This document shows, piece after piece, positions 2,937 to 49,028 of a DNA stretch of 64,000 bases. A program made the translations under genes and the position numbers. The notes under the pieces are model-generated. The model saw nothing but the letters and a program-made list of their open reading frames with translations. It was not told the DNA's origin and ran no database searches. Origin of the DNA: an uncultured Aliivibrio sp. (GTDB lineage: Bacteria > Pseudomonadota > Gammaproteobacteria > Enterobacterales > Vibrionaceae); NCBI RefSeq assembly GCF_946479765.1, contig NZ_CAMLHO010000018.1, positions 7,877 to 71,876 of the forward strand. Direction: 5' to 3'. Position 1 is the first letter of the stretch. Each line of letters starts with the position of its first letter.

Positions 2937-3189
2937 AAAACAGTTAAAAAAAGTTCAGCAAATGTTTTCTACTCAGTTATACCAATTCAAGTAAGTAAGT
3001 GGTTAGATAATTGCGCAGAGAAAATTGATTAGAGCAAGGCATAAATTGCAGTAACTAGTGGGCCTAATTACAAAATTTATAACGTAGTTATAATCAATTT
3101 TAACAAGCAAGAATGAACACATACTTATTTGGATTGGTATATCTCTCATAAAAAGTAAAAACAACGCGAATATCACGTTTTTTAAATTT

Positions 3190-3205
3190 GCTGAATCCTT
3201 TCAGC
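3190..3205. promoter_or_regulatory. Cra/FruR operator-like palindrome GCTGAATCCTTTCAGC
   Basis: Perfect outer half-sites GCTGAA/TTCAGC, located upstream of the cra start. Confidence 0.65.
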
Positions 3206-3211
3206 TTTTAT

Positions 3212-3227
3212 ACTGAAACGATTCAGC
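3212..3227. promoter_or_regulatory. Cra/FruR operator-like palindrome ACTGAAACGATTCAGC
   Basis: CTGAAACGATTCAG palindrome 7 bp downstream of the previous site, giving a tandem operator pair. Confidence 0.65.
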
Positions 3228-3300
3228 ATATAATTCAACCCATAAAATGATTGGATCTAAATTTATATGATCCGACCCACAGAATTTAAGGAACTTAACC

Positions 3301-4278
3301 ATGACATTAGATGAAGTTGCCAAACTTGCTGGCGTTTCTAAAACCACTGCAAGCTATGTTATTAATGGTAAAGCTCAAAAATATCGCATCAGTGAAAAAA
3401 CCCAATTAAAAGTCATGGCAGTGGTTGATGAACATAATTATCGTCCTGATCATGCTGCTTCAGCATTACGAGCTGGCAGCAGTCGTTCGTTTGGGTTAAT
3501 CATCCCTGATCTTGAAAACACCAGTTACGCCAAGCTTGCTAAACTTTTAGAATACAACTCTCGTCAAGCGGGCTATCAAATCTTAATTGGTTGTTCAGAC
3601 GATGATCCCGAAACAGAAAAGAATGTCGCGCACACATTAATCAGTCGCCGTATTGATGCCCTATTCGTTGCAAGTTGCTTACCTGATGGCAGTGATTACT
3701 ATTTAACAATTCAAGAAAAAGGGACGCCAATTATCGCGATTGACCGTTCATTAGATGATGAACATTTTGGCTGTGTAATTAGTGAAGATTTTGATGCGGC
3801 TTACGATCTGACTCAATCTGTCATTACAGATAACGTAAAATCGGTTGGTTTAATTGGGGCGTTACCTGATTTAAACATTTCTCGTCAGCGTCATTTAGGC
3901 TTTGAAGCGAAAGCCAAAGAAAAAGGTTTAGCAAGTATCACAGGCTATGGTGAGCACTTTAATAGTGAGTCTGGAAAAGCTATTTTTGAACAGTGGATAA
4001 AAGAAGAGACAGTGCCAGATGCAATTATCACTACTTCTTATATCCTGCTTGAAGGTATTTTAGATGTATTAATTGAAAAGCCAGAGTTGATGGGAACCGT
4101 AAAACTAGGCACCTTTGGTGATAATCGTCTGCTCGATTTTTTACCGATTAAGATTAACTCCCTACCACAACAGTTTGAATTAATTGCAGATAGCGCATTA
4201 GCATTAGGCTTAAATGCTTCAGCAAAACGCTATCAAGCAGGAATTGAGTTAATTCCTAGGAAGATTGTTATTCGCTGA
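3301..4278 (+). CDS. cra: Catabolite repressor/activator, fructose repressor (LacI/GalR family)
   Basis: N-terminal HTH MTLDEVAKLAGVSKTTASYVINGKA... followed by a periplasmic-binding-protein-like fold. It is divergent from fruBKA. Confidence 0.9.
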   Translation: MTLDEVAKLAGVSKTTASYVINGKAQKYRISEKTQLKVMAVVDEHNYRPDHAASALRAGSSRSFGLIIPDLENTSYAKLAKLLEYNSRQAGYQILIGCSDDDPETEKNVAHTLISRRIDALFVASCLPDGSDYYLTIQEKGTPIIAIDRSLDDEHFGCVISEDFDAAYDLTQSVITDNVKSVGLIGALPDLNISRQRHLGFEAKAKEKGLASITGYGEHFNSESGKAIFEQWIKEETVPDAIITTSYILLEGILDVLIEKPELMGTVKLGTFGDNRLLDFLPIKINSLPQQFELIADSALALGLNASAKRYQAGIELIPRKIVIR

Positions 4279-47557: not shown

Positions 47558-47764
47558 TTACGCTACGCCCATTTTTGACTTGTATTTTTCAATAGATTGC
47601 TGAAAAAACAGACGTTCAGCCTCATCTTCAAGCTTATTTGCCTCTGTTATCCAAAGGTCAGGGCCTGCTTTGGCATTTTTTACCTTCCAAACATAGAACG
47701 CAGCTTGTTTATCGAGTTCAATTTTATTTTTTTCTTGAGGAGGAAGTAACGACAGGTTTTTCAT
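47558..47764 (-). CDS. Hypothetical small protein (68 aa)
   Basis: ORF only, with no recognisable motif. Confidence 0.35.
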   Translation of the reverse strand: MKNLSLLPPQEKNKIELDKQAAFYVWKVKNAKAGPDLWITEANKLEDEAERLFFQQSIEKYKSKMGVA

Positions 47765-47899
47765 AACACGCTCATTTAATTAATTACACGCTATAACTTG
47801 TTATAAAGTGTAATGCTTCATCATTATATTATCTAGATCTAAAACAGCAAACTCCATTTCTTACAGGCAACAAAAATGGGGTCTGTCGCATTTAGATTG

Positions 47900-47937
47900 C
47901 AACTTTTCTAAAAATTAGATCTCGAACCTCGATGTTT
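47900..47937 (+). repeat. Direct repeat copy A (CAACTTTTCTAAAAATTAG + 19 bp)
   Basis: 19-bp identical core plus about 14 of 19 further matches with copy B at 48556-48593. Confidence 0.85.
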
Positions 47938-47972
47938 TTTAAAAGTATCTATATTGCTTAATTTCCTCTTTA

Positions 47973-48000
47973 TGTATTACACTGTATACAATGCAATACA
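47973..48000. promoter_or_regulatory. Candidate TA autoregulatory operator (28-bp imperfect palindrome)
   Basis: TGTATTACACTGTA|TACAATGCAATACA is symmetric at 12 of 14 positions and lies 19 bp upstream of the antitoxin ATG. Confidence 0.5.
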
Positions 48001-48018
48001 TAAAATTGGAGATTTAAC

Positions 48019-48258
48019 ATGCCATCAATGTCAGTGCCAATTCCTGATAGTTTAGAACAACAACTATCTTACCTAGCTGAATCAACAGGTAGAACAAAAT
48101 CATGGTTAGCAAAACAAGCTCTTCAAGATTATTTAGAAAAAGAGTCATGGCATATAGCAGAAATAAATAAGGCACTAAAAGAAGCTGATTTAGGCGACTT
48201 TGCTTCAAATGAAGAAGTGTCATTTATTTTTAATAAATGGGGCGTAAATGAAGATTAA
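48019..48258 (+). CDS. Ribbon-helix-helix (CopG/ParD-like) antitoxin
   Basis: 79 aa. N-terminal RHH pattern (SVPIPDSLEQQLSYLAESTGRTKSWLAKQAL), overlapping the toxin gene by 11 nt. Confidence 0.75.
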   Translation: MPSMSVPIPDSLEQQLSYLAESTGRTKSWLAKQALQDYLEKESWHIAEINKALKEADLGDFASNEEVSFIFNKWGVNED

Positions 48259-48532
48259 ATGGCTAAATACAGCTTTGGTCAATCTTGATTCAACAGCAAC
48301 TTATTTATATGAACGAAATCCGAATTCAGCAGACGTCTTTATTCGAGAAGTAAAAAGTTTAACAGAGCACCTTAAAGAGCAACCATCATTAGGGAGAAAG
48401 GGAAGAGTATTTGGAACTAGAGAGCTTATATTAACTAATTTTCCTTATATAATTCCTTATCGAATAAAAGATGATAATGTTGAAATATTAAGAGTATTTC
48501 CAACAAAAATGAAATTACCAAAGAAGTGGTGA
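48248..48532 (+). CDS. RelE/ParE-family toxin
   Basis: 94 aa. ParE-like features (...GRKGRVFGTRELILTNFPYIIPYRIKDDNVEILRVF) and the canonical antitoxin-toxin order. Confidence 0.75.
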   Translation: MKIKWLNTALVNLDSTATYLYERNPNSADVFIREVKSLTEHLKEQPSLGRKGRVFGTRELILTNFPYIIPYRIKDDNVEILRVFPTKMKLPKKW

Positions 48533-48555
48533 GATCGTTGCCATAATCAGAATTA

Positions 48556-48593
48556 CAACTTTTCTAAAAATTAGCTCTCAAAGCTCAATATTT
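48556..48593 (+). repeat. Direct repeat copy B
   Basis: See copy A. It begins 24 bp after the toxin stop. Confidence 0.85.
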
Positions 48594-48773
48594 ATCATTT
48601 TGTATCCTTAGTTATGAATTTTCGGGTTTCCGTGTTTTTCAATACCCAGTAAAGATGGTTCAGGCATTAGGTTGGAAATCATACACCGGTGCTTTTACGC
48701 GCTCGCTGCATAATAGTTTCTGGCATTTGGCATATTTGTACTGAACCAAAACTTTGCGACAGACAACAAAAAT

Positions 48774-48805
48774 GCGCCATAAATAGACGCATTAATAATA
48801 AAACA
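48774..48805 (-). terminator. Rho-independent terminator of the 48834-49028 gene; its T-tract is the direct-repeat sequence
   Basis: The minus strand reads AATGCG-TCTATTTATGG-CGCATT followed by TTTGTTG. Confidence 0.55.
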
Positions 48806-48833: not shown

Positions 48834-49028
48834 TTAATGAATAAGACCTAAGTCTTTGGCTTCTGAAAGCGTAAGGCCACTTTCTCTGATTTCTAGCATT
48901 GCTTCAATACGACGACGTGCTGCTACTCTTTTCTGACACTCTGCAATATTTGTTACTACTTCATCGGCAATTTCATACTTGCCTTTCATATCGGTGATGT
49001 CACTGTGATCAATAGAATTAATAGACAT
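48834..49028 (-). CDS. Small hypothetical protein (64 aa) with an RRRIE...L motif
   Basis: ORF with an adjacent AGGAGG-like SD (AGGAGGTTATT ATG). AARRRIEAMLEIRE resembles a small conserved gammaproteobacterial protein family, recalled from memory only. Confidence 0.5.
   Translation of the reverse strand: MSINSIDHSDITDMKGKYEIADEVVTNIAECQKRVAARRRIEAMLEIRESGLTLSEAKDLGLIH

Follow-up and report, generated by a model that had tools for sequence, protein, structure and literature searches.

Insertion sequences (IS) of the IS6/IS26 family, pseudo-compound transposons and translocatable units (IS26, IS257, IS6100) are covered by several reviews (PMC7986276, PMC6807381, PMC4196232). The family is ~800 bp in length, has GG tips conserved across its members, cTGTt and caaa motifs and 8-bp target duplications, and its cargo is typically flanked by directly oriented copies, an arrangement known as a pseudo-compound transposon (PMC7986276). 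Toxin-antitoxin (TA) pairs inside transposons are already known (PMC7157771), as are transposase-less units with IS-type ends, namely mobile insertion cassettes (MICs), miniature inverted-repeat transposable elements (MITEs) and Tn3-derived inverted-repeat miniature elements (TIMEs) (PMC4133298; for IS6 MITEs, PMC7986276). Here we describe an 888-bp unit (47879-48766) that carries a ParDE-type TA pair on chromosome II of an Aliivibrio, within a 64,000-nt stretch of contig NZ_CAMLHO010000018.1 (positions 7,877 to 71,876, forward strand; assembly GCF_946479765.1, uncultured Aliivibrio sp.), hereafter the window, to which all coordinates without a contig name refer. Homologues of the locus are found on chromosome II of A. 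fischeri ES114 and at VSAL_II0141 and AWOD_II_0230. We consider it probable, at roughly three in four, that the unit is the fossil of an IS6/IS26 mobile structure that delivered a plasmid-type parDE module into chromosome II.

The left junction of the unit reads ...TTACAGG-CAACAAAAATG-GG-GTCTGTCGCA, and the right junction reads TGCGACAGAC-AACAAAAATG-CGCC. The sequence GTCTGTCGCA (47881-47890) is the perfect 10-bp inverted-repeat partner of TGCGACAGAC (48755-48764), and the pair is flanked by the 11-mer direct repeat CAACAAAAATG (47868-47878 and 48764-48774), which extends to 16 nt (47863-78 / 48759-74) when one mismatch is allowed. Both repeats lie where a preliminary description of this DNA, made from the letters alone, had placed them. 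Nested within the 11-mer is the 8-bp duplication CAAAAATG that is canonical for IS6, at 47871..47878 on the left and 48767..48774 on the right. In dinucleotide shuffles of the 1.8-kb region, perfect 10-bp inverted repeats arose as ~4 pairs on average per shuffle, and such a repeat by itself is not significant here; 5 of 2000 shuffles produced an inverted repeat with an 8-bp direct repeat immediately flanking it. The 11-mer occurs three times in the window, compared with 0.16 expected.

The right copy of the direct repeat is the minus-strand T-tract of a terminator-like hairpin (48771..48793, minus strand; stem 48793-48771, tail TTTGTTGTCT), as the preliminary description had said when it proposed a landing in a terminator tail. 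The host gene of this terminator is the open reading frame for a 64-aa protein (48834-49028, minus strand), which lies upstream of the hairpin. The hairpin is intact despite the insertion and is kept in relatives both with and without the insert.

A search of relatives for the empty site, a check that had been suggested from the sequence, recovered the predicted site almost verbatim as TTACCGGCAACAAAAATGCGCCGTAATAG in Aliivibrio sp. S3MY1 (L049:2754-2764) and sp. EL58 (L058:2754-2764). Both have a single copy of the 11-mer, and of the 8-bp CAAAAATG within it, in a short intergenic region with one CATTTTTGTTG. The window without 47879-48774 aligned colinearly to both contigs, with no gap at the junction. 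Because empty sites with a single 11-mer align to the insert-deleted window, insertion with target duplication is proven, and the TA pair is a discrete insertion, as had been proposed, with inverted repeats, a target duplication and empty sites in two related species. All contigs examined that span the site and have identical flanking proteins or an identical toxin showed the same structure, with divergence of <=2%, and the toxin reading frame was intact in every one of these same-site contigs. The close relatives with identical flanking proteins all carry the insert and gave no empty sites. Relatives resembling A. sifiae were rejected as simple empty sites, because a gene for a 121-128-aa protein occupies the spot in A. 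sifiae, A. logei, A. fischeri and sp. 1S175; its product is predicted to be membrane-anchored and has no Pfam match.

In distant BLASTN comparison with plasmids, both ends of the unit, and not its middle, matched plasmids of Aliivibrio, Vibrio and Shewanella. An ~820-bp element (L020:3001-3822), with GGTTCTGTCGCA...TGCGACAGAACC as its boundaries and a frameshifted transposase gene, supplies the matches in A. wodanis pAWOD920, which correspond to its two ends; they cover 47879-47941, 48552-48632, 48652-48695 and 48691-48763 at 85-93% identity. In total, ~275 of the 888 bp are homologous to IS6 elements, with 81-93% identity to L020 and L141. The element itself (L020:3002-3821) matches genes annotated 'IS6 family transposase' in many plasmids, intact related transposases (L149, L139) match PF13610 (DDE_Tnp_IS240) at 1e-34 to 1e-56, L150 also matches PF13610, and a protein search found this IS6 type to be widespread in Vibrionaceae and Shewanella. 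Canonical copies of this IS type end in GGTTCTGTCGCA...TGCGACAGAACC and are 817-822 bp long. The inverted repeats of the unit broadly follow the standard IS6 tip pattern of GG, cTGT and then a conserved tail, CAAA in the right inverted repeat (IRR) and CATT in the left inverted repeat (IRL). The IRL, GGGTCTGTCGCA, fits the IS6 tip motifs, and the IRR has the cTGT core and CAAAG, with TTG at the tip instead of GGT/GGG. Judged by these sequence matches, the terminal repeats are in all probability the tips of an ~820-bp IS6/IS26-family insertion sequence known from Aliivibrio plasmids. The preliminary description had also suggested a search for a transposase whose IS ends match those of the unit, and it is IS6-type elements, such as L020:3001-3822, that provide the match. 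Insertion of an IS6-type element into the AT-rich T-tract, with duplication of the target (8 bp canonical, 11 bp observed), is shown.

No target duplications are present around the other copies of this IS type (L020, L140, L141, L149, L150), which is common for IS26-like arrays. Such an array is seen on pAWOD920 (L020): three copies or fragments of this IS6 type share one orientation (1290-1804, 3001-3822 and 5316-; the middle one with the frameshifted transposase), and among them lie genes for a phospholipase A1 and an outer-membrane protein.

The unit is built as follows. On the left, IS-A (47879..47937, plus strand) is an IS6 left end that consists of the IRL (47879-90) and 47 nt of 5' untranslated region (IS nt 13-59); these 59 nt (IS nt 1-59) are 84-86% identical to the left ends of L020:3001-3822 and L141:1919-2739. 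The TA-native segment (47931..48558, plus strand), a 620-bp parDE-type module, comprises the promoter/operator, the antitoxin and toxin genes and 26 nt beyond the toxin stop. It is followed by IS-B, a second, directly oriented partial IS6, whose 5' part (48552..48651, plus strand; IS nt 18-~110) includes the transposase ATG (48614-16, MNF...), bears a 1-nt deletion and an 8-nt insertion, and is 85-86% identical to L020:3018-3098 and L141:1936-2016. After 48651, ~500 bp of the IS are missing. Two 3' remnants of the transposase gene with deletions between them then occupy 48652..48754 (plus strand; ~KMVQALGWKS and the C-terminal FYALAA). The first (48652-48695) corresponds to transposase codons ~180-194 (KMVQALGWKS) and is 93% identical to L020:3619-3662; a second internal deletion, of ~85 bp of the IS, lies at the microhomology GCTTT; and 48691-48766, the transposase 3' end (FYALAA) with the IRR, has 85% identity to L020:3747-3819. 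The IRR, TGCGACAGACAA (48755..48766, plus strand), closes the unit, ten of its nucleotides being perfect against the IRL.

Two directly oriented partial IS 5' regions (47879-47937 and 48552-48651) thereby flank the TA genes, both copies are truncated, and one duplication brackets the whole. Their overlap is visible as a 42-nt direct repeat around the TA genes (47896-47937 / 48552-48593; 86% identical), which is IS nt 18-59 present in both partial copies. Neither this repeat nor the transposase-gene remnants at 48614-48766 had been noticed in the preliminary description, and the 230 bp from the toxin gene to the right repeat are not anonymous. The left joint between IS and TA falls in the microhomology GATGTTTTTTA (47931-41; IS ...AATGTTTCTTA, TA-native ...GATGATTTTTA), and the right joint in ATTACAA (48552-58; ATTGCAA in both the IS and the TA-native sequence). 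The two internal joints of the unit read ...CTCGATGTTTTTTAAAAGTAT... and ...CAGAATTACAACTTTTCTAAAAATTAGC..., and both IS/TA joints together with at least one of the two internal IS deletions, the second, lie in microhomologies of 5-11 nt. Joints of this kind would be the signature of illegitimate, slippage-type deletion and not of transposase action.

An intact IS6 transposase is absent from the unit and from the whole 64-kb window. Querying the window by tblastn with a divergent IS6 transposase (L139) gave no signal, and with a closer, intact A. fischeri IS6 transposase (PF13610, 1e-34) only weak peptide matches were obtained, so that the transposase remnants are recognized mainly by nucleotide homology. 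No single PF13610 transposase spans the unit; because only remnants of it are left (the start region at 48614 and the fragments at 48652-48754), the unit is an IS6 derivative, not a functional member of the family. The earlier statement that no transposase lies inside or nearby thus holds for an intact gene and fails for its remnants, which are inside the unit at 48614-48766. The accompanying statement that the unit carries only a TA pair and its operator does not agree with the ~275 bp of IS6 homology, in which both the start codon and two 3' fragments of the transposase gene are found.

Several traits link the unit to typical IS6/IS26 elements. Its IRL has GG, cTGT and the conserved tail, and its IRR has all of these but the GG; an 8-bp target duplication is present; the parent IS is ~820 bp long and encodes one DDE transposase (PF13610), read from the left end; partial IS copies in direct orientation flank the cargo; and adjacent DNA tends to be rearranged and deleted. 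Unlike such elements, the unit has no intact transposase, neither of its IS copies is complete (one has nt 1-59, the other nt 18 to the end with two internal deletions), its IRR tip is CAA and not (A/C)CC, and its direct repeat is 11-16 bp. Its cargo is a TA pair, not a resistance gene, and its site is a chromosomal intergenic terminator in Aliivibrio.

The TA pair consists of a gene for a ribbon-helix-helix (RHH; CopG/ParD-like) antitoxin of 79 aa (48019..48258, plus strand; Pfam RHH_5/RHH_1; PDB 6XRW chain B, E=6e-7) and a gene for a ParE-family toxin of 94 aa (48248..48532, plus strand; Pfam PF05016, E=2.4e-13; PDB 6XRW_A, 5CW7_B), which overlap by 11 nt. Upstream of the ribosome-binding site GGAG and the antitoxin ATG lies a 36-nt palindrome (47969..48004, plus strand) with two 18-nt arms that are 89% complementary. 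From the usual autoregulation of RHH antitoxins, we infer that this palindrome is a putative operator. In sequence, the architecture is of the ParDE type, with an RHH antitoxin gene upstream of a PF05016 toxin gene and a palindrome upstream of both. The locus resembles the ParDE systems of PDB 6XRW and 5CW7 in the order and overlap of the two genes and in the preceding palindromic putative operator. Unlike for these solved structures, similarity is distant (E about 1e-5 to 1e-7), and gyrase poisoning and autoregulation are putative here.

Relatives of this module were found in many plasmid-like contexts. Toxins with 90% identity (P0036, P0037, P0117) occur in ~30 contigs with many different neighbours, including ParA/ParB, a serine resolvase, IS91, other TA pairs and IS6 of the same type. 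Species-representative genomes yielded no relatives of the toxin in an 8-mer peptide scan. The TA segment has 93-94% nucleotide identity to L150-L157 over 47931/36-48558, and 91% identity to the more distant alleles L129-L148 over 47938/52-48532, where the match ends at the toxin stop; the nucleotide homology of plasmid-type TA alleles to the window is confined to 47931-48558. Because the closer alleles L150-L157 match through 48558, the 26 nt after the toxin stop are native to the TA module. The same fact led us to reject the 19 nt after the stop (48533-51) as a decayed IRL of the second IS. An IS6 of the same type lies 163 nt downstream of the sister TA pair in L150 and ~1 kb upstream of it in L140-L142, and on Aliivibrio plasmid-like DNA the TA pair and this IS are thus regularly found near each other.

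Several further features of the sister alleles were seen. The alleles L129-L157 adjoin the palindrome TGACATTAAGGnnnACCTTAATGTCA, ~10-45 nt upstream of the TA-homologous segment (e.g. L133:~3650-3693, L151:~2655-2685). Often a divergently oriented serine resolvase gene is present (L133, L136, L150), and the neighbouring DNA changes left of the palindrome centre. This pattern resembles exchange at res site I, as for TA modules in Tn3-family transposons (PMC7157771). With those modules, which lie beside res sites, the present locus has in common the linkage of a ParE-family TA pair to a transposable element, and its sister alleles in L133, L136 and L150 have in common the res-site-like palindrome and the serine resolvase gene; unlike them, the window copy has lost both palindrome and resolvase, and its element is IS6, not Tn3. 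Among the chromosomal TA alleles (L001-L019), variation occurs at positions that distinguish the plasmid alleles, and towards the same bases (window 47990-48260 vs L151; e.g. 47994, 48022, 48024, 48038, 48072, 48153, 48175, 48216), which suggests that chromosomal and plasmid copies may have recombined. The third exact copy of CAACAAAAATG in the window (48501-48511) lies within the toxin gene parE, close to its 3' end, and plasmid alleles have it as a native part of the module (e.g. L139:3600-3610). It could be a coincidence in A-rich DNA or a microhomology involved in integration.

The history that we propose begins with an IS6-borne structure that would have carried plasmid parDE into the terminator T-tract by ordinary copy-in transposition. 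Its ancestor was presumably an IS6-TA-IS6 pseudo-compound transposon; alternatively, an IS6 already resident may have gained 'TA-IS6' from plasmid DNA, by way of a translocatable unit or through homology-anchored recombination. RecA-independent deletions at microhomologies would have removed IS-A from nt 60 to its end together with upstream DNA, and further deletions of this kind would have taken out whatever lay from the TA tail to IS-B nt 18, as well as most of the transposase gene of IS-B. The TA pair would have been kept either because cells die on losing the antitoxin or because they benefit from the module. The product would be the present, immobile state, with no transposase, an altered IRR tip and a single copy at one site in every same-species contig examined. 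Contig L156 (2846 bp, 3 samples) bears on this history. From the DUF3283 gene through the duplication and the IRL, and on over IS nt 1-59 to the TA promoter, it is identical to the window. Its TA allele mixes window-type with plasmid-type single-nucleotide polymorphisms, and after 48558 the contig runs into plasmid-like genes of L151/L153 with 99.4% identity. It may be a less-deleted intermediate, and could equally be a plasmid integrated via TA homology or an assembly chimera.

Several observations weigh against this history. The direct repeat has 11 bp, or 16 bp in some strains, instead of 8, and no canonical copy has the same three outermost bases in its IRR; for both reasons the right junction is not a textbook transposition joint. 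Identity between the two copies of the 42-nt IS segment is no higher than 86%, and because of this a model with two IS copies is inseparable from one with a single IS and a duplicated segment. The order of events, that is, whether the composite formed before or after arrival, is one that we infer, and no intermediate is proven, as L156 could be chimeric or an integrated plasmid.

At the right junction, the IRR tip reads ..GACAA, compared with the canonical ..GA(A/C)CC. Its outermost 2-3 nt are CAA, compared with ACC in every canonical copy and with CCC in a perfect mirror of the IRL. The target continues as TTG(C/T)CTGT and resembles an IS tip. Such a junction may have arisen from 2-3 substitutions in the tip after an ordinary 8-bp insertion or from a short gene-conversion tract between the repeat copies. 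In about half of the same-site contigs (L002, L004-L008 and others), 47867 G>A turns the repeat into a perfect 16-mer, ACAGACAACAAAAATG, which overlaps the IRR and hints at ongoing homogenization (gene conversion) between the two copies. Whichever the origin of the altered tip, the conserved GG is gone, and therefore this end should be disabled.

Among the alternatives, the one that survives best takes the finished 888-bp composite as a non-autonomous IS6 derivative with cargo, of the MIC or large-MITE type, that was inserted here by an IS6 transposase acting in trans, as the preliminary description had thought was implied. Both IS ends and the target duplication bracket exactly this unit, its 888 bp are within the IS6 length range, and IS6-derived MITEs are on record (PMC7986276). 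Intact transposases of the same IS type are found on Aliivibrio plasmid-like DNA with the sister TA pair (L150, L140), and trans-activation of MICs and MITEs is established (PMC4133298). We nevertheless regard this origin as unlikely, and the unit as it stands does not imply it. A second copy was not found in the contigs examined, where the exact toxin occurs only at this one site, and scans of the metagenome collection gave no matches to the TA/IS-B junction or to the IS left end. Of the ~30 contigs with a sister TA pair, L156 alone shares the IS/TA joints, and that contig comes from the present chromosomal site. In addition, the IRR lacks the conserved GG tip, IS6 transposes through cointegrates whose resolution needs a second full IS copy, and the two overlapping IS 5' pieces with their microhomology joints look like decay, typical of events in place, and not like design.

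In its stricter form, this alternative holds that the unit is, or was at arrival, a functional IS6 mobile insertion cassette with an addiction module as its only cargo, moved by a plasmid-borne transposase and afterwards fixed at the site through the TA pair and the loss of the IRR tip, which we find somewhat harder still to believe. If true, it would be a route by which TA modules colonize chromosomal terminators. The unit does resemble MICs, MITEs and Tn3-derived TIMEs (PMC4133298; for IS6 MITEs, PMC7986276) in its IS-type ends, target duplication, cargo and lack of a transposase, and cargo-carrying units of this kind are already described. Unlike these trans-mobilized and usually multicopy elements, it is found once (among the contigs, the metagenome collection and the sister TA loci examined), one of its tips is degenerate, and transposase debris lies inside it. 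It looks like a decayed autonomous or composite element and not a dedicated non-autonomous one. The exotic cassette mechanism that had been considered is not needed: the ends correspond to IS6 tips, apart from the altered end of the IRR, and an 8-bp IS6 duplication is inside the 11-bp repeat.

A second alternative is that a single intact IS6 was inserted first, and that the TA module later entered its left end, between IS nt 59 and nt 18, duplicating IS nt 18-59, after which the transposase decayed. This has the merit of explaining why there is a single pair of ends and a single target duplication; microhomologies are present at both TA/IS joints, the duplicated 42 nt are exactly the overlap of the two IS pieces, and 6 differences over 42 nt are compatible with divergence since the event. 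The route would have to be a double microhomology or template-switch event, to which we give little credence, as we do to the scenario as a whole. It requires an unusual event that makes a 42-nt duplication; the 42-nt copies differ by 14%, compared with only 6% between the TA pair and its plasmid alleles; and IS6 elements typically flank cargo as direct repeats (PMC7986276). Moreover L156, if real, has further plasmid DNA after the TA pair at this site, as would fit an original insert that was larger.

Finally, chance repeats in AT-rich DNA, in which 10-bp inverted repeats are common in this region, or another system such as an integron attC cassette or a Tn3-derived TIME are scarcely credible and count as refuted, because empty sites exist, ~275 bp are IS6-homologous, the duplication contains the 8 bp expected for IS6 and not 5 bp, the right end lacks a 38-bp Tn3-type repeat, and there is no attC-like structure. 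The left end, GGGGTCTG..., bears what we take to be a superficial resemblance to Tn3-family repeats, and the Tn3-family/TIME reading of it was dropped, as the ends and ~275 bp match IS6 elements. A Tn3-derived TIME would have ~38-bp repeats starting with GGGG and a 5-bp duplication; only 10-12 nt are inverted-repeated here, and the right end is the IS6 3' end. The integron cassette (attC, GTTRRRY core) was likewise rejected: the TA 3' flank is IS6 sequence, the repeat search found no attC-like imperfect palindrome, and an Rfam search of the whole window returned nothing.

Returning to the fossil of an IS6/IS26 structure that we favour, the unit is best called an IS6-derived remnant, whose source and mode of working would be those of an IS6/IS26 pseudo-compound transposon or translocatable unit. 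As a functional IS it fails, having no transposase and one bad tip. It reveals no new mobility mechanism. Its value is that of a well-documented, datable case, with an empty site, of a plasmid addiction module becoming a permanent resident of a chromosome. For annotation, it shows that IS ends are the first thing to check when short terminal repeats accompany an 'orphan' chromosomal TA pair.

The intergenic spot between the gene for the 64-aa protein and the DUF3283 gene is variable across the genus (L023-L038, L050-L052, L057 and L059 compared with L049, L053 and L058). Nothing is inserted there in sp. S3MY1, sp. EL58 and A. finisterrensis, and the species of the window has the IS6-TA fossil. 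Of the two flanking genes, the one at 47558-47764 (minus strand) encodes the DUF3283 protein, which some sources call 'pyridoxamine 5'-phosphate oxidase', and the 64-aa protein (48834-49028, minus strand) is conserved across Vibrio and Aliivibrio and has no Pfam family. In one A. sifiae-like genome, an IS4-family transposase (L026:4142-5464) is inserted between yebC and a DEAD-box helicase gene.

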